From the IMG/VR virus record IMGVR_UViG_3300046518_000157, positions 24,398 to 88,397 of that record: DNA of 64,000 nucleotides; one strand, given 5' to 3'. Source of the stretch: a virus (Duplodnaviria > Heunggongvirae > Uroviricota > Caudoviricetes). Position numbers and translations under genes: made by a program. Shown here one piece after another: positions 4,932-55,402 of the stretch; the stretch's first letter is position 1, and each line of letters starts with the position of its first letter. The notes beneath the pieces are model-generated. The model had not been told where the DNA came from. It made no database searches and saw nothing but the letters and a program-made list of their open reading frames with translations.

Positions 4932-4978
4932 GGTTTACCCTACTGTGCGTCTCCCTTATACCAAGGATTCGCAAGAAA

Positions 4979-19991: not shown

Positions 19992-21398
19992 TTATATTGC
20001 AGCGTTCCTGCGAACTTCATTGAACGTCAGTTCCTTCACGAGCTTACCACCAGTGTACACGACTTCGAGATGATCGTCACGACCCATTGCATTTTCACGA
20101 CGGATCGTAGTCAGTTCACCGCTTTCGTCACTGACAAGTGCCAGACGCCCCTTCTTGCTAGTCTTGCCACCAGCAACAGGATCCTTGTACACGTCATTCC
20201 ACTTGCCATCGATTTGAATTGCCGAAGCCTTCATTGCAAAGCCAAACGTATCACGGTCAAGCTTCTGGTGAAGAGCACCACCCATACCGAATGCAACGTT
20301 CTCAGCACTGAAACCATCCATCTTCAGAGCTGTGAGAATAGCTGCGATTGAGATCGGGTTTACACCGTCGCCTTGGATGACACGAACCTTGTTCAGGACT
20401 TTGAACCCTTTACCGTTCGTCGCGTATCCGAACTTGTCTGCGAGAATCCCAACAACCGTCCTAACAACCGACACCGGATCTCCGGAATCAGGTCTAACAA
20501 CGAGAGTACCAGGCAAAGCAAGGACAAAATCACGAAGGGTATCGCCCCAGACGTTTTTGACAGCATTAAAGATGTCGTAACTATCAGAGACAACTGCGAA
20601 AAGGCCACTGCCGAACTTCTCAGCCATATTACGATATGCGTCCGCTTCTCCTGAACGCCCCCAACTAGTAATAGTACTATGCTCAGCAGCAGGGATGCTA
20701 AACCCAAGAGAATCACGTTCTGCTCCGTAGAATTGATGAGCGTACTCCATGCCGAGCATGGTGTCCGTACCCATGAAGTTCACCAAGTGTGCGGCACCAG
20801 CAATAGCAGAAGTTTCTGCAGAACTAGCACCACGAGCACCGAAGTCATGAAGCTTAAAAGGAAGCTCGTCAAGCGGCTTATCGCACGTATCGACCAGTCC
20901 TTTGAAGATGATTTCTTTACAGTGACGGCTGATCGTCGCAACTGTGGTACCAAACCAGGCCGCACGAAGGATTTGCGTTTCATAGAATGAACCCATCCAA
21001 AGCATTTCGGGATCGTGACATTCGACGTCAATGATAGCATTGCCGATAGGCACTTGCGTACCTTCAGCTACAGCACGGATCGTGATAGGCGCACGACCTC
21101 CGTACACTTCCACCACTTTACGGAATGCGCCTTCTGCAAACGGCTCTCCGTGAAGCTTACAGATACGTCCTGCTTCAATCACGTCGTCAAGCGCAATCGG
21201 AGTCAGAAGGTGATCCTTGATGTAGCCTTGAAGGCCAAACGGAGTTACGTGTGTGATACCGAAACCGCTATTGTCCTTACGGGGTTCTACGTAAGAAGAC
21301 AGAGCAGTTGCACCAGCCGGGTATTGCAGGAAATGGCTGTGCTTGTATGAATCGGTATTGAGAAGCGGATTGATTTTGAATTGTGACATTATTAACAC
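19992..21398 (-). CDS. nadV: Nicotinamide phosphoribosyltransferase (NAMPT/NadV)
   Basis: LLNTDSYKHSHFLQYP, KLHDFGARGASS, SIPAAEHSTITSWG, VVSDSYDIFNA, RPDSGDP, VIQGDGV and KKGRLAL all match NAMPT conserved blocks. Confidence 0.85.
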   Translation of the reverse strand: MLIMSQFKINPLLNTDSYKHSHFLQYPAGATALSSYVEPRKDNSGFGITHVTPFGLQGYIKDHLLTPIALDDVIEAGRICKLHGEPFAEGAFRKVVEVYGGRAPITIRAVAEGTQVPIGNAIIDVECHDPEMLWMGSFYETQILRAAWFGTTVATISRHCKEIIFKGLVDTCDKPLDELPFKLHDFGARGASSAETSAIAGAAHLVNFMGTDTMLGMEYAHQFYGAERDSLGFSIPAAEHSTITSWGRSGEADAYRNMAEKFGSGLFAVVSDSYDIFNAVKNVWGDTLRDFVLALPGTLVVRPDSGDPVSVVRTVVGILADKFGYATNGKGFKVLNKVRVIQGDGVNPISIAAILTALKMDGFSAENVAFGMGGALHQKLDRDTFGFAMKASAIQIDGKWNDVYKDPVAGGKTSKKGRLALVSDESGELTTIRRENAMGRDDHLEVVYTGGKLVKELTFNEVRRNAAI

Positions 21399-21442: not shown

Positions 21443-22600
21443 TTAGATACCAAGCATCTTGCGAATGATCGATGAGTGATCTTCGAAGATCAGTTCAGCG
21501 TGACTTAGTACATAGTCGATCTCGTACCAGTCTGTAGCCTTTTGCAAAGCGGTGCTTGCGACTGCATCGTCGCCACCCTTTACCTTAGGAAGCCCCGGCT
21601 TTTTGTCCGACTTATCCAGGTCAAAAAGAAAAGCGTGCGAAATAGTGCGCCCACGCAAACTACGGCCAGGATGATCAAAAACAACACCGGCAGACATACT
21701 ACCGCTAAGAAGACCTCTTGGAAGGTCAATCGAAGTTTCCTCTTGTAATTCACGGATCGCCGCATCTTCAAGCCTTTCATTTTGTTCCAGGAATCCTCCG
21801 GGTAATGCAAGGAGTCCTTCCCCCGGTGCAGCTTTACGCTTCACCATCAAAATATGACCAGCCTTCTTGACAATCGCATCGACAGTCACAAAGGTAGGTG
21901 CATACGGTGCTGCTTTCCAGGAGTCTTTGTACTTCTGCACCATCTTGTATTCACGTCCAAGACGCAGATACTCCGGAGTTTTGATGAACTCCTTGATGAA
22001 GCTAAAAGTGTACTCCGGAACCAAACTTTTGAGAAGCTCAATGAAACCAGGCTTCTCAAAGATTACTTCACGGATAGCTGTAGCATCAAAGCCAAGCTTG
22101 ACTTCGTCTACTGCAACGTAATCGTACTGCGGAAAGAGATCAAGGTAGTACGAGCTTTCGTCTTTCTTGTTACCGACGATTGCAACCTTGCTTTTTACAT
22201 CTTTGTCTGTCCAACCCTTTCCTGCCAAGAGAACAGTTGCTACTTCGTTTTGCACGGAAGTAACCCACTCATCATCTGAGTAGAGGTTATCCACAAGCGG
22301 AGCCGTGAAAATGTTCGAAGTACCAGCCGCTTGAATAACCATTTGCGAACGTTCATCGTACGTAAATGGATTCTTGATAGTGCGTGGTGCGTGCGAAGAA
22401 CCGATAAGAACCAATACCTTGTCAGCCACCATGAACGCCTTATTCAAAAGGATCTGGTGACCTACATGCAAGGGTTCGAAACGACCAATGACTACAGCCA
22501 GGTCGTATTGATTTTCTTCTGTGGATACTGCAAGTTGTTTACTGCCAAAAGTAGCTGCGTACATTTCAGCCACTTCATGATAAAGTTTACTATGTGACAT
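21443..22600 (-). CDS. nadM: Bifunctional NMN adenylyltransferase/ADP-ribose pyrophosphatase (NadM-Nudix)
   Basis: N-terminal nucleotidyltransferase motif VIGRFEPLHVGHQ (HxGH) and C-terminal Nudix box LPGGFLEQNERLEDAAIRELQEETSI. Confidence 0.8.
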   Translation of the reverse strand: MSHSKLYHEVAEMYAATFGSKQLAVSTEENQYDLAVVIGRFEPLHVGHQILLNKAFMVADKVLVLIGSSHAPRTIKNPFTYDERSQMVIQAAGTSNIFTAPLVDNLYSDDEWVTSVQNEVATVLLAGKGWTDKDVKSKVAIVGNKKDESSYYLDLFPQYDYVAVDEVKLGFDATAIREVIFEKPGFIELLKSLVPEYTFSFIKEFIKTPEYLRLGREYKMVQKYKDSWKAAPYAPTFVTVDAIVKKAGHILMVKRKAAPGEGLLALPGGFLEQNERLEDAAIRELQEETSIDLPRGLLSGSMSAGVVFDHPGRSLRGRTISHAFLFDLDKSDKKPGLPKVKGGDDAVASTALQKATDWYEIDYVLSHAELIFEDHSSIIRKMLGI

Positions 22601-26948: not shown

Positions 26949-27923
26949 TTACTCCGATTTCGGAGCAGCCTTCGGCGTCCAGTCGGTCGGAACCTTCAGC
27001 AGTTCCTTGTTTTCGACACGGTGCGACCCAACGTGGCCGACCAGAATGCCCAGCGGAACGAAGTTGTTCGTTTCCAGGCCATACGCCTTCGCACGGTTGA
27101 TGTCGGCAATACGAGTCTTTGCAGCTTCGACGGTGTTGCGAGCCGAACGGATTTCTGATACGTTTTCTTCGATTACGATTTCAGCAGCGTTCAGAACGCC
27201 CATCACTTCCTTAGCCGCCGCGATGGCCGCTTCCTTCTTCTGCGCTGCTTGCATGTCTTGCAGTGCTTCACGCAGATCCACGTTCAGACCGCCGAAGTCA
27301 GCGACTTCCTTGGTGAATTGCGAATCTGCCAGACGGATTATTGCGTTGCTCATGGTCGTTTCTTCCTTTTTGGTTGTAGGTACTTCGAGTTTATTGCAGA
27401 TGGTCTTGCCAGGGCGGAAATGCCGTTTCTTAAGATACTCCACCTTGACCTGATCGGTGATAGGGGTGCCGTCAGTATACTCAAACTGCACACCTTCCCT
27501 TGACACAATTACCGTGTAATCGTTGCATGGAATCAGATCTTCTACTGGCAAAAGGTGAAGGTGAAGCTGATACGGACGGGACTTGGAGTCTGTTGACTCT
27601 ATCTTCTTGGCGAGGTATAACTTACAAGAGCCGCCCATTACTTCAGGCTGTTTGATTTCAAGGAGAAAAGATCCGCTCGCACTAGGACAGTGCCCGCCAA
27701 CGAGCCTGTCGCATTTGGAGCAGCTCTGTTTCTTGGCGTCGAGTTTTTCCTTAAGCAACTGGCCGAGATTGGGCACTGCAGTTACTGGCTCATTCTCCTT
27801 CTGCTCAAAGTCGTTCATGCAAGGTCCGACCTTTGCGCTGACCGGTGTGAACCGATGGTCGAGATACTTTCCACCGCACGCAACACCAGGCCCTTTGAAT
27901 TTTTTGCAATCACCGCACGGCAT
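26949..27923 (-). CDS. Hypothetical protein with an N-terminal Cys cluster
   Basis: 324-aa ORF; CGDCKKFKGPGVACGG and further Cys residues. Confidence 0.5.
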   Translation of the reverse strand: MPCGDCKKFKGPGVACGGKYLDHRFTPVSAKVGPCMNDFEQKENEPVTAVPNLGQLLKEKLDAKKQSCSKCDRLVGGHCPSASGSFLLEIKQPEVMGGSCKLYLAKKIESTDSKSRPYQLHLHLLPVEDLIPCNDYTVIVSREGVQFEYTDGTPITDQVKVEYLKKRHFRPGKTICNKLEVPTTKKEETTMSNAIIRLADSQFTKEVADFGGLNVDLREALQDMQAAQKKEAAIAAAKEVMGVLNAAEIVIEENVSEIRSARNTVEAAKTRIADINRAKAYGLETNNFVPLGILVGHVGSHRVENKELLKVPTDWTPKAAPKSE

Positions 27924-28019
27924 TATTTCTCCTTATCTACAACGATTAAGTTCTGCAGCCTAAGACAAAGCTTAAGCGTTGAAGGGAACCCCGTACTGGA
28001 CTACGGGGGTACTGCGGTT

Positions 28020-28330
28020 TAGTTTCGGTGGTCCAAACACCTAGTTGGTTTCGCTGCCTTACCAACAGAAGTTCCAACAGAAAGAGTGCAACTACATCTC
28101 TCTCTTCAGCTTTCCAACAGCGCTCCGTCCTTTATAGAGCTTCGCCTCATCAGCGCCAGAATCGAACCGGCCCCTCTGTTGGAAGTTTCCCCTTAACTGA
28201 TTCGTTTAACTCTCAGCTAATCCGGTAGCGACTCCACTCTACCTCTCGACAGTTAGTTAATCCTCGTCAGGACTTTGGTGATTCGAACACCATCGCTTGG
28301 TTCAGGGGAAAAGAAAGGCATCGAATAAAT
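28020..28330 (-). ncRNA. Structured non-coding region with two tRNA T-arm-like hairpins (not complete tRNAs)
   Basis: Minus strand has GGTG-TTCGAAT-CACC (plus 28277-28291) and GCCGG-TTCGATT-CTGGC (plus 28155-28173), plus a long-range stem CTTCCAACAG/CTGTTGGAAG. No matching acceptor strands. A promoter-like motif lies upstream at 28349-28358. Confidence 0.3.
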
Positions 28331-28348
28331 ACAATGCTTCCTAATAAA

Positions 28349-28358
28349 CTTATACCAA
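28349..28358 (-). promoter_or_regulatory. Promoter-like motif TTGGTATAAG (minus), upstream of the T-arm-containing non-coding region
   Basis: Plus-strand cttataccaa; the next protein-coding start lies about 430 nt downstream (27923). Confidence 0.4.
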
Positions 28359-28384
28359 TTCGAAATGTCGAAATTGAATAAAAC

Positions 28385-28756
28385 TTACAGACAACGCTCA
28401 ATCACGTTTGCGATTTGCTTGAAGCTCAGCCTATCCGTATCATTCAGGTTTACCAGGGTAGTTGCCTGACCACGATACGTAACATTGATATCAGTAGGCT
28501 CTGCTGCATCTTTCTCGCTTGCAACCTCCATCAAACCTGCCCACTCTACAACTGCAGGAGGAAGATGCCCGAATGCGTCCATATAGCTAAATTTGCTAGT
28601 CTCTTTTGCAGCAAGTTCCGGATGCTCTTGAGCATGAATGTTGCATAGAACGCCGAGGCAACAGAATCCAATATCGTCACGGAGTTGGCCAGTAGTACGG
28701 GGGTAGTCACCGCTGCGAAGAGCTTTGAGCCACTTAGTTTTTACACGCTTTTTCAT
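28385..28756 (-). CDS. Member 8 of the tandem CCLGVL paralog family
   Basis: MKKRVKTKWLKALRSGDYPRTTGQ...GFCCLGVLCNIHAQEHPE...FKQIANVIERCL shares the N-terminal K-W-x-x-AL-x-SG-[ED]-Y, CCLGVL core and C-terminal I-A-x-[LV]-I-E pattern with its 7 neighbours. Confidence 0.6.
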   Translation of the reverse strand: MKKRVKTKWLKALRSGDYPRTTGQLRDDIGFCCLGVLCNIHAQEHPELAAKETSKFSYMDAFGHLPPAVVEWAGLMEVASEKDAAEPTDINVTYRGQATTLVNLNDTDRLSFKQIANVIERCL

Positions 28757-28785
28757 TTCAATTCTCGTTTAAAGTTGTTTACGAC

Positions 28786-29145
28786 TTACAGTTGTGCTTC
28801 AATAAGATCAGCGATTCCGGAAAATCCGGGATTCAAGCTAGGGCTATCGTTGAGAGTCCAAAGATCTTTCTTTGAGCCTTCGAACATTACCTTGCCATCA
28901 TCATCAAGGCCGGCCCACCTACGGACTTCATCTGCAAGCATTCCCGGCGAATTTCCGTAAACAACCACTCCCTCAAGACCGTCGGGGTAGTGAAATCCCT
29001 TGCTCTCAGGATGCTCTTTGAGATGAAGTTCACAAAGAACGCCGAGGCAACAGTGACCTTCAGTCTTTTTAAGCTGACCTGTAGTCTGCTTGTACTCACC
29101 GCTACGAAGAGCGGCTACCCATTTTGCTTTTACCACTTGGTTCAT
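28786..29145 (-). CDS. Member 7 of the tandem CCLGVL paralog family
   Basis: MNQVVKAKWVAALRSGEYKQTTGQ...GHCCLGVLCELHLKEHPE...FSGIADLIEAQL. Confidence 0.6.
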   Translation of the reverse strand: MNQVVKAKWVAALRSGEYKQTTGQLKKTEGHCCLGVLCELHLKEHPESKGFHYPDGLEGVVVYGNSPGMLADEVRRWAGLDDDGKVMFEGSKKDLWTLNDSPSLNPGFSGIADLIEAQL

Positions 29146-29147
29146 AT

Positions 29148-29504
29148 TTAAAGATCGTACTTAATAAGATCAACGATTTGTGAAAACGGCATATCGTGGT
29201 CGTTAAGGTTTGAAAGCCAAACTTCTCCGCCTTGCCTATTCGTGATCGACAATCCCCCGTCGAAAGACGCAAGACCAGACCACTTTTTAACTTGTACAGG
29301 CAAGTTACCTTCCGCTTTAAGAATGAGCTTCTTACCATAATCGAAATTGGAATTAACCCACGGCTCGCCCGTTTCCTTGGAATAGATATCGCAAAGAACC
29401 CCAAGGCAGCAGAACTGTTCATCTTTGTTGAGATTGAACTTTCCCTGCTTATACTCTCCGCTCTCAAGAGCAGCAATCCATTTCTGTTTGACTTCTTCGT
29501 TCAC
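29148..29504 (-). CDS. Member 6 of the tandem CCLGVL paralog family
   Basis: MNEEVKQKWIAALESGEYKQ...QFCCLGVLCDIYSKETGE...FSQIVDLIKYDL. Confidence 0.6.
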   Translation of the reverse strand: MNEEVKQKWIAALESGEYKQGKFNLNKDEQFCCLGVLCDIYSKETGEPWVNSNFDYGKKLILKAEGNLPVQVKKWSGLASFDGGLSITNRQGGEVWLSNLNDHDMPFSQIVDLIKYDL

Positions 29505-29845
29505 AGTTGAGCCTCGATAAGGTCTGCGATTTGGTGAAAGTTGTATCCACGGCCATCATTAAGAAAAGGGATAGACGAATGCATCGAATATCCTTCAACC
29601 TTAAATCTTATAGCCTGAAAGTTAACATCAGCCCATTCAGAGATATGGGAAGGAGGAAATCCTTCCATCGAATCAAACGATTGCTTCTTAGCACCAGTCT
29701 CTTTATCATGAACCTCGCACAAGACACCAAGGCAGCAGTGAGATGTACTACCATCTACCTCGTTTTGCTTAAGCCTATACCGGGTCTGTTTGTACTCCCC
29801 GCTGCGCAAGGCTTCAACCCACAGTTTCTTTACACGTTCGTTCAT
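29501..29845 (-). CDS. Member 5 of the tandem CCLGVL paralog family
   Basis: MNERVKKLWVEALRSGEYKQ...SHCCLGVLCEVHDKETGA...FHQIADLIEAQL; 4-nt overlap with both flanking paralogs. Confidence 0.6.
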   Translation of the reverse strand: MNERVKKLWVEALRSGEYKQTRYRLKQNEVDGSTSHCCLGVLCEVHDKETGAKKQSFDSMEGFPPSHISEWADVNFQAIRFKVEGYSMHSSIPFLNDGRGYNFHQIADLIEAQL

Positions 29846-30282
29846 AGCGCGTATTTGATAACGTCAGCGATTTGAGAGAAGGTGAGACCGGAGTCGTTCA
29901 GAGTTGCCAGAGTGAAGTAGTCGTATTGATTTATAGGATCATCTCCTTCTACCCAGCTCTTAGCCGGAACCACTGCTGGGTTCTCACCTTCGATGCCTGC
30001 CCAATCTTGGACTTTCTTATCAAGAGTCTTACCATTACCCTCGAAACGGAAAAGCGGTTTGTTGAGCAATTCCGTTGGGTAATAGTCTTCGTCATCGACA
30101 ATTTCATCAAGTGGCTTAACAGTGTGCGGTTCCCACTTGGCACCTTGATTCTCCTGGATATACAGATCCGTGAGAACTCCAAGGCAGCACATGCCTTCAC
30201 CGGTATTAAGACACTTCGTGGCTTGTTTATACTTACCACTTTCCAGTGCCCACACCCACTTTTCTTTGACTTGTTCGTTCAC
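29842..30282 (-). CDS. Member 4 of the tandem CCLGVL paralog family
   Basis: MNEQVKEKWVWALESGKYKQ...GMCCLGVLTDLYIQENQG...FSQIADVIKYAL. Confidence 0.6.
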   Translation of the reverse strand: MNEQVKEKWVWALESGKYKQATKCLNTGEGMCCLGVLTDLYIQENQGAKWEPHTVKPLDEIVDDEDYYPTELLNKPLFRFEGNGKTLDKKVQDWAGIEGENPAVVPAKSWVEGDDPINQYDYFTLATLNDSGLTFSQIADVIKYAL

Positions 30283-30662
30283 AGTTGAGCCTCGATGATG
30301 TCAGCGATTTGGTTGAAGTCGAACGACAAATCATCGTTCAAGTCCATCAAGTTGGAATTACGAGACCTAATATCGGCCTCTTCGTCGGAAAGAATAACCG
30401 GAGCATCCCCATGATTCGCAAGAATACCGGCCCATGCTCCAACTTCGCTAGGAAGAGACGTGTATTCTCTGTCAAACCTGTACCGTCCCAACTTAGCATC
30501 GAACTCCCATTTGAACTCTGGAAACTCTTTGGAGTAAACATCACACAGAACACCGAGGCAGCAGAAGCCTTGATTATCCTTGAGTGAGTATTGGGTCTGC
30601 TTATACTCCCCGCTTCGAAGCGCAGTAAGCCACTTGGCTTTAACTTCTTGATTCATCTTCAT
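30279..30662 (-). CDS. Member 3 of the tandem CCLGVL paralog family
   Basis: MNQEVKAKWLTALRSGEYKQ...GFCCLGVLCDVYSKEFPE...FNQIADIIEAQL. Confidence 0.6.
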   Translation of the reverse strand: MKMNQEVKAKWLTALRSGEYKQTQYSLKDNQGFCCLGVLCDVYSKEFPEFKWEFDAKLGRYRFDREYTSLPSEVGAWAGILANHGDAPVILSDEEADIRSRNSNLMDLNDDLSFDFNQIADIIEAQL

Positions 30663-31057
30663 TACAGAAACGCCTTGATAAGATCTGCGATTTCAGGAAA
30701 GGTAATGCCTTCGTCGTTCAGAGCTGCAATACTTGTGCTGATGTCGGCTTCCGGAATAGGTTCAGGATCTTTCCCTATAAAATTTGCACGTTCAGCGAAC
30801 GGAAGATACGGAACATTTGTGTCAATACCGGACCATGCCTGAACATCTAGAGGGGTTAGGTAAACCTCTCCATCGAAACCAGGCTTGCCTTCATCTTCAA
30901 TGAATTCCCACTCCAGGCCATGTTCTTTTGCGTAAATATCTGTCAGAACTCCTAGGCAACAAAAGCCGCCCTGGCCATTGTTCAAACAGCTCTTACCTTG
31001 GCTATATTCGCCGCTAGTAAGAGCTTCAACCCATTTCTGTTTGATTAGTTCATTCAT
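30662..31057 (-). CDS. Member 2 of the tandem CCLGVL paralog family
   Basis: MNELIKQKWVEALTSGEYSQ...GGFCCLGVLTDIYAKEHGL...FPEIADLIKAFL. Confidence 0.6.
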   Translation of the reverse strand: MNELIKQKWVEALTSGEYSQGKSCLNNGQGGFCCLGVLTDIYAKEHGLEWEFIEDEGKPGFDGEVYLTPLDVQAWSGIDTNVPYLPFAERANFIGKDPEPIPEADISTSIAALNDEGITFPEIADLIKAFL

Positions 31058-31605
31058 TACAGAAACGCCTTGATAAGATCTGCGATTTGAGGAAAAGAAA
31101 TACCAGCGTCATTTGCGCCAGCTACGCTTTCGTGGTATTCGGACATTTTGTCTTCATCAATCTCAATGTCTTCGCTATTGTGATCTTCGTCACGAGGAAT
31201 AAAAGGAAGAAGAGGAATCGGTTCTTTCAAACCAGCCCAGTCTCTTACTATGGAGGTAAGTACTCCAGCTTCATCCCATTCATTAGGATTCCCACCAGGA
31301 GCATCCAGTGCATACCGCGTAACACCTGCCTTAACTCCGTAATCGCTCAGTTTCCACTTGCCACCATTTTCCTTGATGTACAGATCCGTGAGAACACCGA
31401 GACAGCACATTCCTTGGCCATCGTTAAGACAACCTTTAGTCTGTAAATATTCCCCGCTGTTCAAAGCTTCAATCCATTCCTGCTTAATTTGTTCGTTCAT
31501 GGTCTTGATCCGGTATAGGTTATTATTACAATACAGGCTAACGCAATTGCGACGCCCAGTGTCCAAACTGATGCCTTTAGAGCGGCCTTCATTTTGAGAA
31601 GCCAA
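31057..31605 (-). CDS. Member 1 of the tandem CCLGVL paralog family (true start probably the internal MNEQIKQEW, near 31500)
   Basis: ...MNEQIKQEWIEALNSGEYLQ...GMCCLGVLTDLYIKENGG...FPQIADLIKAFL. The extra N-terminal 35 aa in the track ORF have no counterpart in the other paralogs. Confidence 0.55.
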   Translation of the reverse strand: MASQNEGRSKGISLDTGRRNCVSLYCNNNLYRIKTMNEQIKQEWIEALNSGEYLQTKGCLNDGQGMCCLGVLTDLYIKENGGKWKLSDYGVKAGVTRYALDAPGGNPNEWDEAGVLTSIVRDWAGLKEPIPLLPFIPRDEDHNSEDIEIDEDKMSEYHESVAGANDAGISFPQIADLIKAFL

Positions 31606-31648: not shown

Positions 31649-31658
31649 CTTATACCAA
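31649..31658 (-). promoter_or_regulatory. Promoter-like motif TTGGTATAAG (minus), upstream of the paralog array
   Basis: Plus-strand cttataccaa at 31649-31658; a partial copy (cttatacaac) sits at 31636-31645. Confidence 0.45.
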
Positions 31659-31673
31659 AATTGAGGACTATAA

Positions 31674-32291
31674 TTAGTCGTCGTGCTTGCCGTCGTAATG
31701 ACCTTTCCAGTACCCTTTATTCAATTCTCCGTTTATTGCCTTAACAAGAGTTTGAGCGGGAGCTTCTCTCAGAGCAAGCATCATTGCGAAGTTAGCAATA
31801 TCGGTAGGGTCACCCTTGTACAAGTGTTCAACCAACATATCTGCAAGTTTATCAACACTGCACCTTTCAGGATTGTCCCAACCGCCACGACCTTTCTCCC
31901 GAGCTTTAGCGAGCTTCGCTTTCATCATTGCTGCAAACTTATCCACAGCAACGTCGTCGGGATGAGGTTCTTCAACGGGTTGTTTGAAGCCCTGAAACAT
32001 CTTCCTCAACTCTTCCATTCCCGCTTCAACTTGTCGAGCAGCTTCTGCAAAGGCCTCATACTGAGCAAATTGAACCGGAGACTTTTCATGTCCCAGAGCT
32101 TCAAGCATCATCTTCAGATCTTGCAAAGCAATTTCTCTATTCTTGTGCTGAGACCTGTGCGTATCACATGTAGCAGAAGCTCCTGTCGGGATATGAGTTG
32201 CACGAACCCCTACCCCCATAGAGGAGCCTACCCACGTTCTAGGCTCCGTATAAAACACATCTAACTTAATGTCTTTTGGATCAAGTTCCAT
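31674..32291 (-). CDS. Release-factor-like protein (class I RF / ArfB GGQ-domain homolog) lacking the GGQ motif, plus a C-terminal helical domain
   Basis: VRATHIPTGASATCDTHRSQHKNREIALQDL aligns with the RF1/RF2 segment RITH[LI]PTGIVVxCQxERSQHKNKxxALxxL. The preceding GGQ loop is replaced by the shorter GSSMGVGV. Confidence 0.55.
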   Translation of the reverse strand: MELDPKDIKLDVFYTEPRTWVGSSMGVGVRATHIPTGASATCDTHRSQHKNREIALQDLKMMLEALGHEKSPVQFAQYEAFAEAARQVEAGMEELRKMFQGFKQPVEEPHPDDVAVDKFAAMMKAKLAKAREKGRGGWDNPERCSVDKLADMLVEHLYKGDPTDIANFAMMLALREAPAQTLVKAINGELNKGYWKGHYDGKHDD

Positions 32292-52981: not shown

Positions 52982-55402
52982 TTAAAGACGCGGATCCATT
53001 TCTTTCTCTTGGTTGAGTTGCGAGATCATCTTCACAATCAACTCAGTCATTGCAGGACCGTTGTCAGCCGAAAGCATCTTCGTTGCCAGTTCGAACTCCT
53101 TGATAGAGACCTTCAGTTTACCACCAACTCGCTTCTGCTTGCACAGTGCTTCGTAGCGACGTTTGTAGTCGAAGCCATAGACGAGAGTCAGGTAATTTTC
53201 ATTCCGGACTTTCATATACGGTGCTACGTCTTCAGGTCCGGCGAGAGGTTTAATGACAACACCCTCCATGCCGTGTTCGATAGTCAGTTCCTTGAAGAAG
53301 TTTTCAGCCATTTGCAGCTGGCTCTCATCATCGAGATCGATGACCAGCCAGTCATCCCCATTCACTTCATCGAATGAGTCAGCTTGTTCAACGCGAGTAA
53401 ATACATTGCCATCGATTTTCAGAATTGCAAACGGCTTGTAATATGGCTCGCCAGTTGCGGAGTACAGATTCAGCGTATCCGAAAACGTCTTCAGATCGTT
53501 CTCAAGCAAATCCTGAGCATCGATCTTCTGCTTAAAGTCAAGCTTAGCAAATTCTTCGTCCTGAGCAAGTGTCGAAAGCTCATAGTGTACAAGACCTTCA
53601 TACGCTTTGAACTGCTCTTCAACAAGACCAGTACCAAGAGTCGTCCACGGCAGAAGCTCACCGTCCAGAATAAGTTCATCGAACGAATTCGGAAGGAACT
53701 TTTCTTCATACTCAGCAAGAAGCTTCTGAAGCATAACAGTAAGCTCTTCTGTCATGCGAATCTTGAATCCATTTCTGGAAACAAGGAAACACTTCTCCGG
53801 TTGACCGTGATACAGATACGCCTGACAACGTGAGCCCATGTACTTCGGTTGAATAGCAACCTGATCTACACCCTTGTCTTTGAAGTACTTAAGACCAGCT
53901 TCAAGGCTTTCGATCTTACCTTCGGTTGACGGAGCCGGAGCCATCGTACCAGAAATGTACTTAATGCCGTTCTTCAGCGTACGATTCAAAAACTTCATGT
54001 CGTCTGGAGACAACTTATAATCATAAATGCTGAAGGGACGCTCCTTCAAACCGATAGGTACGGTCAAGTCAGACTTCAACTCTTTTTGATGCTCGACCAG
54101 CGACTCGGTCTTGACATCGACGTAAACATATCGATTGTTTTTGTACGAAAACGCAGTAAGCTTGTTACCGTACACTGCTCCGGTATCCAGGAAGATCTTG
54201 TTACGGAACTCAATCTTACCGGCATTGTGAGCAACGTGACCGAATACATGAATAGGATGGTTACGAACAGCCTGATCGAAGATGAACTTGTACGCTTCAC
54301 GATAGTCTTTATCACGACGACCGAAAAGATTACGCTGCGCCTTAAGTGCATCATTGCTCAGCTTACCCAGATACTTGTTTTCACAAGGAGCATGGGTTAC
54401 ATACACGGTTCGTATATCCCGTCCAAATACTTTCAGGAACGGAGTAGAGTGATTGTCAAACAAGTCAACAAGCACGGCGGCAAGGTCAGGACGTTCCAGG
54501 AGAACCTTAAGTGAAGACATATACTTAGCCTCCAGTTCAAGATCAGGATTTTTGATTTCGCCCTTGATACGCTTCACAGCGTAGCTCTCATGGTTTCCGT
54601 GAATGATACGGCCACCTTCGTCAACAAACTTTGAAACCAGCCGAAGCATGTTCTCCGTGTCATTGCCTTTGTCTAGATAATCACCTACAAGAACGTTGAT
54701 ACTGTCCTTAGGCAACTTCTCCAGCATTTCAGTAAGACCCTTAACGTGCTCATGGGTATCACCGATGATGTTCAGCTCTTTGTTCGAAGTCAAGTACAAG
54801 CTGCTCTTGGCATAAACATCGAGGTCTTTGATTTCAACTTCGATATCAGCCCAGTACTTCGGATCACGTTCACGGATACGGATGTTTCCGTCGTGTTCTT
54901 TTCGGCCAAGGTTAGGAAGAACGTGCTGCTTAAAACGAGCTGCACTGCTGTCTACTACTAGCTTTTCTTCCGGCGTAGATTCAGACGAATATGACTTATT
55001 GGTGTACTCGAAAGTAACCAGTTCAGTACGATACTCGTTGGTTTCCGCAAGAGTCCTGACTTTCTTTCGGAACTCGTCGTTCATGCCAGTCGTATCAACG
55101 ATCACGAACTCGCTGTTGACAGGGAACATGATCGCAGCTTCAAGTTTCGCCATCAAGACCTTAAACGCGGCCTCTGAAGCCTCCGCCATGAGCGGGGAAT
55201 ACCGATGGAGGTTCTTATGGCCGTAAAGGCTCTCACGCTCGGAATCGGAGCTGATAATAGGAATTGCACAGCTCGCTCCAAGCCCTGCTTTGGCCATTTC
55301 TTCGCCAAGCGCAAGTTGAAGTTGGTGTGAGAACGTGCTCTTACCGCACATCGAAGGTCCGACGAGAATAAAAACGGTATGGAGCTTAGTTTCGATTTTC
55401 AT
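52982..55402 (-). CDS. pnkp: Polynucleotide kinase-phosphatase with a C-terminal ligase-like domain (bacterial Pnkp-type RNA repair enzyme)
   Basis: N-terminal P-loop (LVGPSMCGKST), a central calcineurin-like phosphoesterase (IIGDTHEH, GDYLDKGND, HGNHE), and a ~350-aa C-terminal domain with a candidate nucleotidyltransferase lysine (QPKYMGSR). Confidence 0.7.
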   Translation of the reverse strand: MKIETKLHTVFILVGPSMCGKSTFSHQLQLALGEEMAKAGLGASCAIPIISSDSERESLYGHKNLHRYSPLMAEASEAAFKVLMAKLEAAIMFPVNSEFVIVDTTGMNDEFRKKVRTLAETNEYRTELVTFEYTNKSYSSESTPEEKLVVDSSAARFKQHVLPNLGRKEHDGNIRIRERDPKYWADIEVEIKDLDVYAKSSLYLTSNKELNIIGDTHEHVKGLTEMLEKLPKDSINVLVGDYLDKGNDTENMLRLVSKFVDEGGRIIHGNHESYAVKRIKGEIKNPDLELEAKYMSSLKVLLERPDLAAVLVDLFDNHSTPFLKVFGRDIRTVYVTHAPCENKYLGKLSNDALKAQRNLFGRRDKDYREAYKFIFDQAVRNHPIHVFGHVAHNAGKIEFRNKIFLDTGAVYGNKLTAFSYKNNRYVYVDVKTESLVEHQKELKSDLTVPIGLKERPFSIYDYKLSPDDMKFLNRTLKNGIKYISGTMAPAPSTEGKIESLEAGLKYFKDKGVDQVAIQPKYMGSRCQAYLYHGQPEKCFLVSRNGFKIRMTEELTVMLQKLLAEYEEKFLPNSFDELILDGELLPWTTLGTGLVEEQFKAYEGLVHYELSTLAQDEEFAKLDFKQKIDAQDLLENDLKTFSDTLNLYSATGEPYYKPFAILKIDGNVFTRVEQADSFDEVNGDDWLVIDLDDESQLQMAENFFKELTIEHGMEGVVIKPLAGPEDVAPYMKVRNENYLTLVYGFDYKRRYEALCKQKRVGGKLKVSIKEFELATKMLSADNGPAMTELIVKMISQLNQEKEMDPRL

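Follow-up and report, generated by a model that had tools for sequence, protein, structure and literature searches.

Eight tandem, diverged DUF8296 paralogs in the early region of a large uncultured phage

Layout, products and transcription of the array

Eight consecutive minus-strand open reading frames occupy positions 28385-31500 of the window, by which we mean the whole 64,000-nt stretch of phage DNA analysed here. They are paralogs, as had been proposed from the letters of this DNA: the frames are present, their products can be aligned from end to end with 23 columns invariant (among them CCLGVL, W, AL, SG, Y, ND and F..I..I...L), and each matches the whole of the profile phrog_18067 (E = 4e-15 to 4e-23). 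A single profile matched by all eight copies excludes chance. Numbered from the upstream end, and all on the minus strand, the genes are copy 1 (31057..31500, 147 aa, ATG start, E = 4.4e-15), copy 2 (30662..31057, 131 aa, E = 5.7e-23), copy 3 (30279..30662, 127 aa, E = 5.4e-23), copy 4 (29842..30282, 146 aa, GTG start, E = 2.4e-16), copy 5 (29501..29845, at 114 aa the shortest, E = 3.8e-23), copy 6 (29148..29504, 118 aa, with a GTG start that overlaps the stop of copy 5, E = 8.6e-21), copy 7 (28786..29145, 119 aa, E = 6.6e-18) and copy 8 (28385..28756, 123 aa, E = 1e-22). The range of 114-182 aa first given for these proteins is right at its lower bound and too high at its upper, which becomes 147 aa. 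The most likely start of copy 1 is the ATG at 31500 (MNEQIK...) and not the TTG at 31605 (182 aa), because the former aligns with the family N-terminus and agrees with the JGI/ENA calls, which give a protein of 147 aa carrying PF26948.

From copy 1 to copy 8 the junction gaps are -1, -1, -4, -4, -4, +2 and +29 nt, an overlap or near-abutment at six of the seven junctions. The start of copy 2 shares TAATG with the stop of copy 1, and the GTG start of copy 4 lies in a GTGA overlap with the stop of copy 3. Translational coupling had been ascribed to all eight genes; copies 1-7 are indeed coupled or nearly so, but a 29-nt spacer sets copy 8 apart. Identity among the paralogs is 33-51%, and at the DNA level they resemble one another only in the motif-coding ends. 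The duplications are old, with no sign of recent amplification.

All eight products are small, soluble proteins of the cytoplasm and for the most part acidic (pI 4.1-6.8), properties compatible with binders or decoys. The mark of DNA mimics would be a strong and uniformly negative surface (pI about 3.5-4.5). Charge divides the array, copies 1-4 having pI 4.1-4.6 and net charges of -8 to -15 and copies 5-8 having pI 5.0-6.8 and net charges of 0 (copy 8) to -4. Long acidic inserts fill both variable loops of copy 1 (net charge -15, pI 4.30), copy 4 has the longest inserts of the array (residues 55-75 and 100-120), and copy 5 has an insert of 5 residues ahead of the Cys pair.

The promoter-like motif that had been pointed out upstream of the array, TTGGTATAAG at 31649..31658 on the minus strand, is real as a recurrent signal. 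It resembles an extended -10 element (TGnTATAAG), lies ~150 nt upstream of copy 1, and at no more than one mismatch has 17 matches in the window where 3.6 are expected, 16 of the 17 on the coding strand and with a conserved nnnATTG just downstream; a -35 consensus, sought at these matches, is absent from them. It is likely that this copy of the motif, as a putative promoter, is the start of the array's transcription unit. A second TTGGTATAAG at 28349..28358, also on the minus strand and 27 nt past the copy 8 stop, is where the next unit begins, which fixes how far the array extends downstream. The 461 nt downstream of the array (27924-28384) are non-coding in independent gene calls and contain T-arm-like hairpins, in agreement with the original prediction, but they hold no recognisable tRNA or other known RNA: ARAGORN placed 21 tRNAs in the window and none in this interval, and Rfam, tRNA and tmRNA models included, gave no match to it, whether at E <= 1 or at gathering thresholds. 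The fold z-score of the region is -1.68.

The DUF8296 family and its predicted fold

No known domain had been recognised in these proteins, yet each of the eight is a member of Pfam DUF8296 (PF26948) and of phrog_18067, albeit a family without known function. The eight gene products of contig L001 are the window's eight proteins (0 differences), and all have a precomputed PF26948:DUF8296 match at E <= 1e-5; the same tag is on all of the best 120 homologs. Along the 129 positions of phrog_18067 the copies cover positions 1 to 126-128 (E = 4.4e-15 to 3.8e-23). Because DUF8296 has no assigned function, membership explains nothing mechanistically, and profile and structure searches placed the family in no well-characterised structural or housekeeping domain.

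The family is large, with 44,952 clusters at 50% identity (E <= 1e-3), nearly all of them single-domain proteins of 106-143 aa; the median length is 122 aa, the median pI is 4.65, and 16% of members have a pI above 6. IMG/VR yielded at least 586 confirmed relatives. DUF8296 is nearly confined to phages and prophages. The clusters come almost all from uncultured viruses, about 20 of 50,697 deposited phage genomes carry the family, it occurs in only 3 of 72,556 plasmid records, and in bacterial genomes its neighbours are of prophage type (Ant/Bro, HTH regulators, HNH, primase, tail protein). The contigs carrying it go with Proteobacteria, Actinobacteria, Cyanobacteria, Chloroflexi and CPR or are binned as archaeal.

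Family and array have a common signature, W-x2-AL-x-SG-x-Y-x-Q, CCLGV, ND and F-x2-IA-x2-I. In copy 3 numbering its residues are W11, A14-L15, S17-G18, Y20, Q22, C34-C35-L-G-V, N109-D110, F116 and I123, each conserved at 94% or more in 405 distinct members of the family, a sample in which high-scoring or motif-selected sequences are over-represented. In the eight copies they are invariant except for Q22, which is Arg in copy 8, so the Gln written into the N-terminal motif of the original prediction holds for the other copies. Of the core motif first described, CCLGVL is invariant, while the G-x ahead of it gives way to S-H in copy 5 and to Q-F in copy 6; the C-terminal F-x-x-I-A was likewise drawn slightly too strictly, its Ala being Val in copy 6. 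Conservation in the sample reaches 98% or more at S17, Y20, Q22, C34, C35, N109 and D110 (100% at C34, 98% at C35), and the Cys pair is kept in 425 of 442 secondary array copies. Judged from these alignments, the core, in which seven or more polar residues are near-invariant, seems better read as a functional site than as a passive scaffold.

AlphaFold2 models of copy 3 (pLDDT 88.7) and copy 4 (pLDDT 89.2), both with a pTM of 0.85, have the same rigid alpha/beta core, composed of an N-terminal helix, the SG-x-Y-x-Q loop, a central helix that is conserved in full and opens with the Cys-Cys of CCLGVL, then an Asn-Asp turn and, last, a C-terminal helix. Variation in length and sequence falls at two peripheral sites of the models, the tip of a beta-hairpin and a loop before helix 4, the latter being the sole low-confidence part. 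The early description of a conserved scaffold with variable segments is thus borne out by a common core with two variable sites. None of the solved structures compared with the models resembles them, and a profile search against PDB sequences gave no match. Thioredoxin-like, papain-like/NlpC, rhodanese and E2/UBC folds were considered and rejected, as there is no structural match and neither a conserved His nor a CxxC motif in the 405 distinct sequences. SUKH and other polymorphic-toxin immunity families were also set aside, with neither membership nor linkage to toxin genes found.

In both models helix 2 begins with the Cys pair, and at a helix N-terminus the dipole lowers the thiol pKa in many Cys enzymes. 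Together with the near-invariance of both Cys and of their polar companions, its retention in secondary array copies and a core dN/dS that indicates very strong constraint (see below), this speaks for a reading in which the copies are small thiol-dependent enzymes or covalent thiol traps and the array is an isoenzyme panel. The first Cys would be the nucleophile or redox centre, Asn-Asp, Tyr, Gln and Ser would assist it, and the variable loops would pick substrates. We consider this possible but rather unlikely; it overlaps the host-interaction reading that we prefer below and differs from it in taking catalysis, not binding, as the activity.

Turnover and selection

Tandem arrays of 2-7 copies were found in 15 of 80 viral loci, the other 65 having a single copy. 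In IMG/VR these arrays include one of seven copies (L071), two of six (L025, L012), two of five (L037, L039) and one of four (L048); Logan contig L140 has at least five, and Synechococcus phages B3/B23 have five tandem copies (gp85-gp89). The proteins of all these arrays bear the annotation 'hypothetical protein'. B3 and B23 are Kyanoviridae, unrelated to the window's phage, whose DNA polymerase is closest to those of Salmonella phage Arash and Vibrio phage D69 (45-47%). Like the array in the window, those found elsewhere are on one strand, head-to-tail and with overlapping junctions, but they have fewer copies: eight is the largest tandem DUF8296 run among those found in this analysis.

Three of these arrays, with six, five and four copies (L025, L039 and L048), are in contigs syntenic with the window and occupy the same slot, hence the same locus; the flanking proteins of these relatives are 48-84% identical, and close haplotypes carry seven copies. 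Copy 8 alone has an ortholog at 55% or more in the three syntenic relatives (69-70%), no other copy having one above ~50%, and as the only copy with a clear ortholog it may be regarded as the 'anchor' copy. Copy 7 is present in the window and in L001, L003, L004 and L006 and absent from haplotypes L002 and L139, a clean whole-gene indel, and copies 2, 4 and 8 have a mosaic allele pattern across the window, L002 and L139. Relative to L002, copy 2 is 89% and copy 6 is 100% identical. A protein identical to copy 3 (P0001) is found on 23 contigs, and the whole array is 100% identical over four independent metagenome contigs. The array is ancestral to the clade of syntenic phages and evolves by birth and death (4-8 copies), by whole-gene gain and loss and by allele shuffling among co-circulating haplotypes.

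Diversifying selection, which had been suggested for the variable inserts, finds no support in the strict sense. Across three haplotypes that circulate together, the core has a dN/dS of 0.05-0.08 and the variable segment one of 0.21-0.35, with nonsynonymous changes over-represented in the latter (odds ratio 2.9, p = 0.007). No omega above 1 was seen in pairwise averages over these three haplotypes, which weakens an arms-race reading. The variable segment is under relaxed purifying selection, and the full signature is kept in every copy, Q22 of copy 8 apart.

The fluctuation between four and eight copies, and the dispensability of one copy in natural haplotypes, could also be expected of evolutionary debris, that is, of selfish or decaying duplicates without current function. 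This we find scarcely credible. The eight frames are intact and have lost no family-invariant residue other than the one just named, omega lies between 0.05 and 0.35, the start/stop overlaps are preserved, and four independent contigs have the array without a single difference. Purifying selection in effect refutes it.

Genomic context and candidate roles

The array lies in the early/DNA-metabolism region of a large (~180 kb) uncultured phage, among neighbours that include a NAMPT and NMNAT/Nudix pair, ThyX, an SPFH protein, an RF-1-domain protein and the 21 tRNAs. In cultured phages the family sits in early or nin-like regions, and in these and the window together the adjoining genes of DNA and nucleotide metabolism include ThyX, RNR, recombination genes and a Ser/Thr phosphatase. 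Such neighbours would suit a phage-intrinsic role, as a regulator, chaperone or accessory of replication, nucleotide metabolism or transcription, with the array providing dosage or sub-functionalisation. A target carried by the phage itself would also fit a family that is phage-specific in any host phylum, present as one copy in most phages and under purifying selection throughout. However, no phage gene consistently co-occurs with it, and under a strictly intrinsic, conserved role one would not expect copy number to turn over rapidly, seven of the eight copies to lose orthology between syntenic relatives or change to be concentrated in surface loops. We regard an intrinsic role as distinctly unlikely; if it were correct, the array would be an unusual case of dosage or sub-functionalisation.

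The nearby NAD-salvage pair, which is counter-defence-like, also bears on whether the copies could be sponges that hold a small molecule (an immune-signalling nucleotide, a cofactor or a metal) at the polar/Cys site, the loops being irrelevant or serving oligomerisation. Near-invariant S, Y, Q, C, C, N, D and W in a tiny protein found across all host phyla would fit a universal ligand, and a third Cys, C40, conserved at 86% in the family, could complete a metal site. Yet C40 is Thr in copies 1, 2 and 4, the acidic net charge disfavours anionic nucleotides, the solved structures of Tad1, Tad2 and Acb2 are unlike the model, and a single conserved ligand would leave unexplained both why there are eight diverged copies and why their loops have diversified. 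Sponges of this kind seem to us improbable, more so than an intrinsic role.

The explanation that we favour, tentatively and as somewhat short of probable when taken whole, is that the array, a DUF8296 expansion, is transcribed as a unit, early, and forms a host-interaction module whose specificity is set by loops. Transcription would proceed as one unit from the extended -10-type promoter, probably early in infection, and the products would serve host takeover or counter-defence. The conserved polar site (SG-x-Y-x-Q, CC, ND) may provide a common activity or docking surface and the two variable loops a distinct target for each paralog, so that one phage could reach several forms of a host factor or of an effector of defence. 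The acidic pI of the copies and of the family speaks against binding to nucleic acids and is what protein binders or mimics usually show. What points to a host-interaction role is context and analogy, since no experiment, annotated homolog, literature or structural relative was found that ties DUF8296 to a function. Such a role is weakened by the neighbourhood comparison, which found no partner or target gene recurring beside the family, by the absence of DUF8296 from PADLOC models and by its near-absence from plasmids; moreover, the 65 single-copy loci indicate that a panel of paralogs is not needed for the basic function.

The analogy is with several known systems. Bacterial polyimmunity loci, said to have been described by Zhang, Iyer and Aravind in 2011-2012, reportedly consist of tandem diverged immunity proteins such as SUKH/Smi1-Knr4. 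Polyimmunity paralogs are cytoplasmic, ~100-150 aa long and alike in fold but variable on their surfaces; each presumably neutralises a toxin variant of its own, and such proteins have been reported in viruses too. Their architecture and logic are similar to those of the array in the window. A more specific proposal, again unlikely in our estimate though deserving consideration, is a novel-fold class of counter-defence proteins with a reactive Cys-Cys/Asn-Asp site, inhibitory or enzymatic, and with target-setting loops, the array being a viral counterpart of polyimmunity. Each paralog would then neutralise a different variant of a host immune effector, and gene birth and death, together with the shuffling of alleles among co-circulating phages, would keep the panel renewed. 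Ocr, ArdA, Arn, anti-CRISPRs, Tad1/2, Acb2 and Gad1 are small, acidic, stand-alone proteins of early regions, as are several of the copies (net charge -8 to -15). By contrast, the solved structures of anti-defence proteins and DNA mimics are unlike the model, with no PDB-sequence profile match for the copies, and classical anti-restriction genes, unlike DUF8296, are not nearly absent from plasmids. Large DNA viruses have a 'genomic accordion', as in poxvirus K3L amplification and the ASFV MGF families. The array resembles it in tandem amplification with divergence, in copy-number polymorphism between close strains and in its placement in an accessory, putatively host-interacting region, but its duplications are old, and neither recent amplification nor positive selection was seen.

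DUF8296 is one of the larger phage families of unknown function, with a fold that is predicted with confidence and unmatched among solved structures, and with a strikingly conserved Cys-Cys/Asn-Asp/Tyr/Gln signature. Were a role in counter-defence or host takeover true, tens of thousands of viral genes would be annotated at once. The array is a natural experiment, eight intact and presumably co-expressed variants on one scaffold under purifying selection, with copy-number polymorphism and a conserved 'anchor' copy in addition. The family is already catalogued in Pfam and PHROG, and the array in the window is the largest case, among those found in this analysis, of something that other phages do; at the protein level its copies are the same as the rest of DUF8296/phrog_18067 in length class, signature and acidity, and it is the copy number that stands out.

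Layout and family of the array

Between 28385 and 31500 the minus strand of the window carries eight consecutive ORFs of 147, 131, 127, 146, 114, 118, 119 and 123 aa (copies 1 to 8, copy 1 lying at the 31500 end), a maintained, co-oriented and tightly coupled eight-copy expansion of DUF8296 (Pfam PF26948). The copies align over their whole length with 33-51% identity to copy 1 and share 23 invariant columns, including (copy 1 numbering) K6, W9, A12-L13, S15-G16, Y18, C32-C33-L-G-V-L, E44, W88, N130-D131, F136, I139, I143 and L147. Each also matches one PHROG profile, phrog_18067, end to end (E = 4e-15 to 4e-23); paralogy is therefore beyond chance, confirming the original prediction of eight consecutive paralogous small proteins. 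That prediction opened the first gene at a TTG (31605), for 182 aa; we favour the ATG at 31500, which gives a 147-aa protein beginning MNEQIK..., aligned with the family N-terminus, and which independent JGI and ENA gene calls also picked, so that this start bounds the array proper. Successive junctions measure -1, -1, -4, -4, -4, +2 and +29 nt, with TAATG and ATGA/GTGA overlaps. Copies 1-7 are thus translationally coupled or nearly so; the coupling proposed for all eight genes stops short of copy 8, which follows after the +29-nt gap.

The proteins do belong to a known domain family, contrary to the first reading: all eight genes of contig L001, whose array is identical to that of the window, are tagged PF26948 'DUF8296'. 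A profile search of a 5.8-billion-protein collection gave more than 7,600 matches, with a PF26948 pre-tag on every match listed, and HMMER, run exhaustively over 1.84 billion representatives, returned 44,952 clusters at 50% identity (E <= 1e-3; 30,522 at E <= 1e-10), nearly all of them single-domain proteins of 106-143 aa. The handful of natural fusions join two or three tandem DUF8296 domains and include no other Pfam domain, which suggests that tandem copies may work together as hetero-oligomers. Given the tags, the cluster count and the few fusions with no other domain, DUF8296 is a catalogued, very large and functionally blank family; what is new here is the largest array seen, and nothing is categorically new. 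The database proteins P0121, P0122, P0123, P0207 and P0034 are single polypeptides of 2-3 DUF8296 domains with short linkers between them; a 521-aa ORF in L127, considered as a further domain fusion, looks like spurious high-GC read-through.

Scans of the eight copies against local Pfam (a set without the PF26948 model), NCBIfam and PADLOC gave no significant matches, and weak matches to DUF3806 (E = 0.1-0.26, below cutoff) were dismissed as noise. Profiles built from 8 and from 126 sequences had 0 matches among PDB sequences at E <= 10, and literature searches found nothing relevant on PF26948, DUF8296, phrog_18067 or the CCLGV motif in this context, nor on DUF3806.

DUF8296 is abundant in IMG/VR, with at least 586 confirmed matches, and of 50,697 deposited phage genomes only about 20 have it, annotated each time as 'hypothetical protein'. 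The deposited carriers are Synechococcus phages B3, B23 and S-H1, Ralstonia phage RSP15, Alteromonas phages AD45-P1 to P4, Tunturi_3, Alishewanella phage Slicko01, Brevundimonas and Stenotrophomonas jumbo phages, and Bradyrhizobium phage ppBjS10J-1; an actinobacterial query for curated actinophage annotations yielded the same few phages again, all 'hypothetical'. Among bacteria sampled at one genome per species it is found at 48 loci in many phyla, with neighbours of prophage type (Ant/Bro anti-repressors, HTH regulators, HNH, primase, tail protein, PAPS reductase), and plasmids are nearly devoid of it (3 of 72,556 records).

Copy turnover and a conserved anchor

Gene birth and death shape the array upstream of copy 8, which is its conserved anchor. 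A single DUF8296 copy is present at 65 of 80 IMG/VR loci and 2-7 copies at the other 15; multi-copy clusters also occur in bacterial contigs, in phages B3 and B23 (five copies) and in contig L140, eight being the highest number among the loci surveyed. The relatives L025, L039 and L048 share synteny with the window (flanking proteins 48-84% identical), including an RF-1-domain gene upstream and a 132-aa gene and ThyX downstream; at this locus they have 6, 5 and 4 copies. Copy 8 alone has a clear ortholog in them (69-70%), the other copies reaching 33-50%, no higher than between paralogs inside the window. The duplications are old, since DNA similarity between copies (60-89%) is confined to the motif-coding ends, a pattern on which recent duplication or gene conversion was rejected as well.

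Copy 7 is missing from the close haplotypes L002 and L139 through a clean whole-gene indel with an unrelated spacer; unequal crossing-over was rejected as its origin, the boundaries being intergenic and the spacers unrelated. Alleles are mosaic among the three haplotypes, copies 2 and 4 uniting L002 with L139 and copy 8 uniting the window with L139, which indicates recombination within the array. Four further contigs (L001, L003, L004 and L006) carry arrays with protein sequences identical to those of the window.

Diversifying selection, as originally proposed, finds no support in omega averaged over genes or segments. Between the window and L002, omega (Nei-Gojobori) is 0.05-0.40 per copy and 0.02-0.27 in flanking genes. 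Each gene was then split in two: the core runs from the N-terminus through helix 2 and resumes from the ND turn to the C-terminus, and the variable middle lies between. With copies pooled, omega for core and variable parts is 0.08 and 0.25 for the window against L002, 0.05 and 0.21 for the window against L139, and 0.05 and 0.35 for L002 against L139. The variable part is enriched in nonsynonymous changes (odds ratio 2.9, p = 0.007), with omega well below 1 in both parts; on pooled omega over three haplotypes, the variable middle is under relaxed purifying selection. These selection data contradict the notion that the array is non-functional debris, which we consider extremely improbable.

Predicted fold, conserved residues and possible role

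AlphaFold2 models of copy 3 (126-sequence alignment; pLDDT 88.7, pTM 0.85) and copy 4 (reordered 125-sequence alignment; pLDDT 89.2, pTM 0.85) show the same order of elements: helix 1, the SG-x-Y-x-Q loop with short strands, helix 2 starting from Cys-Cys, a beta-hairpin, helix 3 (LP..V..W), a long loop, a short helix ending in Asn-Asp and a C-terminal helix. In the long paralogs the added residues fall at the tip of the hairpin (copy 4 residues 55-75, pLDDT 75-85) and in the loop leading into helix 4 (residues 100-120, pLDDT 56-78), so the models support a fixed scaffold with variable loops, much as the conserved scaffold with variable inserts had been anticipated.

Across 405 distinct sequences, a sample enriched for high-scoring or motif-selected members, conservation (copy 3 numbering) is at least 98% at W11, A14, L15, S17, Y20, Q22, L27, C34, C35, L36, G37, V38, N109, D110 and F116, and 85-89% at R16, K8, C40, D41 and E124. 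Seven polar positions are near-invariant in this domain of about 120 aa, which points to a functional site as well as a fold; against that, the run of eight conserved residues in helix 2 would also suit a buried central helix. We give nearly even credence to the array being an early-expressed host-interaction or counter-defence module: the conserved polar site would provide an activity common to all paralogs, the two variable loops would direct each paralog to a different target, and expression would fall early in infection. The architecture can be likened to bacterial polyimmunity loci and to the 'accordions' of viral multigene families, a likeness that concerns the possible working of the array and not family membership.

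Alternatively, the array could be a panel of thiol-dependent enzymes, a reading that overlaps with host interaction or counter-defence and that we rate as somewhat unlikely; the 405 sequences hold neither a conserved His nor a CxxC motif, and tests for membership placed DUF8296 in none of the SUKH-type immunity families, known anti-defence folds or Cys-enzyme folds. The family is acidic (median pI 4.65, 84% of members below pI 6), and among the window copies the extremes are pI 4.1 (net charge -15) and 6.8 (net charge 0). That the copies serve as a small-molecule or metal sponge seems very unlikely.

In cultured phages DUF8296 lies in early or 'nin-like' accessory regions, adjoining both ThyX and an HflC/SPFH protein in AD45-P1, an arrangement shared with the window, and a Ser/Thr phosphatase in RSP15 and B3, and standing between NinB/HNH and a methylase in ppBjS10J-1. 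No partner common across lineages emerged when 2,103 viral-locus neighbour ORFs were clustered and 141 genome-locus neighbours were scanned against Pfam and PHROG. A phage-intrinsic accessory factor is, in our estimation, quite unlikely. The size of the family, its orphan fold and the invariant Cys-Cys/Asn-Asp signature make DUF8296 a good target for experiment.

Promoter-like motifs and neighbouring genes

The promoter-like motif predicted upstream of copy 1, TTGGTATAAG at 31649-31658, is borne out as a recurrent signal: the window holds 17 matches at <=1 mismatch (12 exact, 5 with one mismatch) against 3.6 expected, 16 of them on the coding strand, strand-specific and intergenic. All instances share a downstream nnnATTG and a -35 consensus is absent (minus-strand examples at 4955, 9825, 17927, 19696, 23188, 24877, 33649, 46960 and 56781), so that the motif reads like an extended -10 promoter. 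We infer that it functions as a promoter and, with nnnATTG, probably represents the main early or middle promoter class of this phage. A second TTGGTATAAG at 28349-28358, 27 nt past the stop of copy 8, closes off the array at its other end, making it one putative transcription unit. Scans of the array locus for sigma-70 promoters and for terminators gave no excess over shuffled expectation.

This second motif heads a 461-nt non-coding stretch (27924-28384, minus strand) that is 99.8% identical in L002, exceeding the adjacent genes (88-93%). L025, L039 and L048, in which flanking proteins reach only about 60%, match its 64-nt core (27985-28048, GACTAGGTGTTTGGACCACCGAAACTAAACCGCAGTACCCCCGTAGTCCAGTACGGGGTTCC, two hairpins) at 92-93% identity. 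The stretch had been described as having tRNA-like T-arms and has no Rfam or tRNA match; its sequence conservation makes it a candidate for a conserved ncRNA or a regulatory element. Beyond it lies a 324-aa ORF (26949-27923, minus) whose N-terminal region is Cys-rich (MPCGDCKKFKGPGVACGG..., CSKCDRLVGGHC...); this ORF lacks a PHROG match, carries no Pfam tag among the contig gene calls, and is comparatively fast-evolving against L002 (92% aa identity, omega 0.27).

Directly upstream of the array (31674-32291, minus) lies the gene of a 205-aa RF-1-domain (PF00472) protein. The protein is unchanged in L002 (100% identity) and reaches 48% identity in the syntenic relatives, which likewise have it ahead of the array. 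By eye its catalytic GGQ position reads 'VGSSMGVG', with the downstream RSQHKN segment retained; an ArfB/PrfH-like factor with altered catalysis is one possibility.

The window covers the early/DNA-metabolism region of a large phage (longest array-bearing contig 181,869 bp), encoding RNR subunits, a split family-A DNA polymerase, ThyX, an SPFH protein, an AAA ATPase and 21 tRNAs. Megablast of the array locus against deposited phages gave no match and hence no close DNA relative; the DNA polymerase is nearest to those of Salmonella phage Arash (47%) and Vibrio phages D69, D148 and D181 (45%). Two genes next to each other, NAMPT (19992-21398, minus) and NMNAT/Nudix (CTP_transf_like plus NUDIX; 21443-22600, minus), form an NAD+ salvage pair that resembles the phage NARP2 pathway, which counters NAD-depleting defence systems, and by this analogy suggests that the region is rich in counter-defence functions. 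The top Rfam tRNA score in the window (74.8 bits) belongs to an amber-suppressor-like tRNA with anticodon CTA (38676-38751, minus; ARAGORN label 'Pyl'), near a tRNA with an aberrant anticodon-loop call (37443-37515, minus); TAG is the stop in only 4 of 72 long coding-strand ORFs. An 806-aa protein (52982-55402, minus) with polynucleotide-kinase (Pnkp), NinI-like phosphatase and RNA-ligase-like matches, together with the 21 tRNA genes, hints that this phage invests heavily in supplying and repairing tRNAs.
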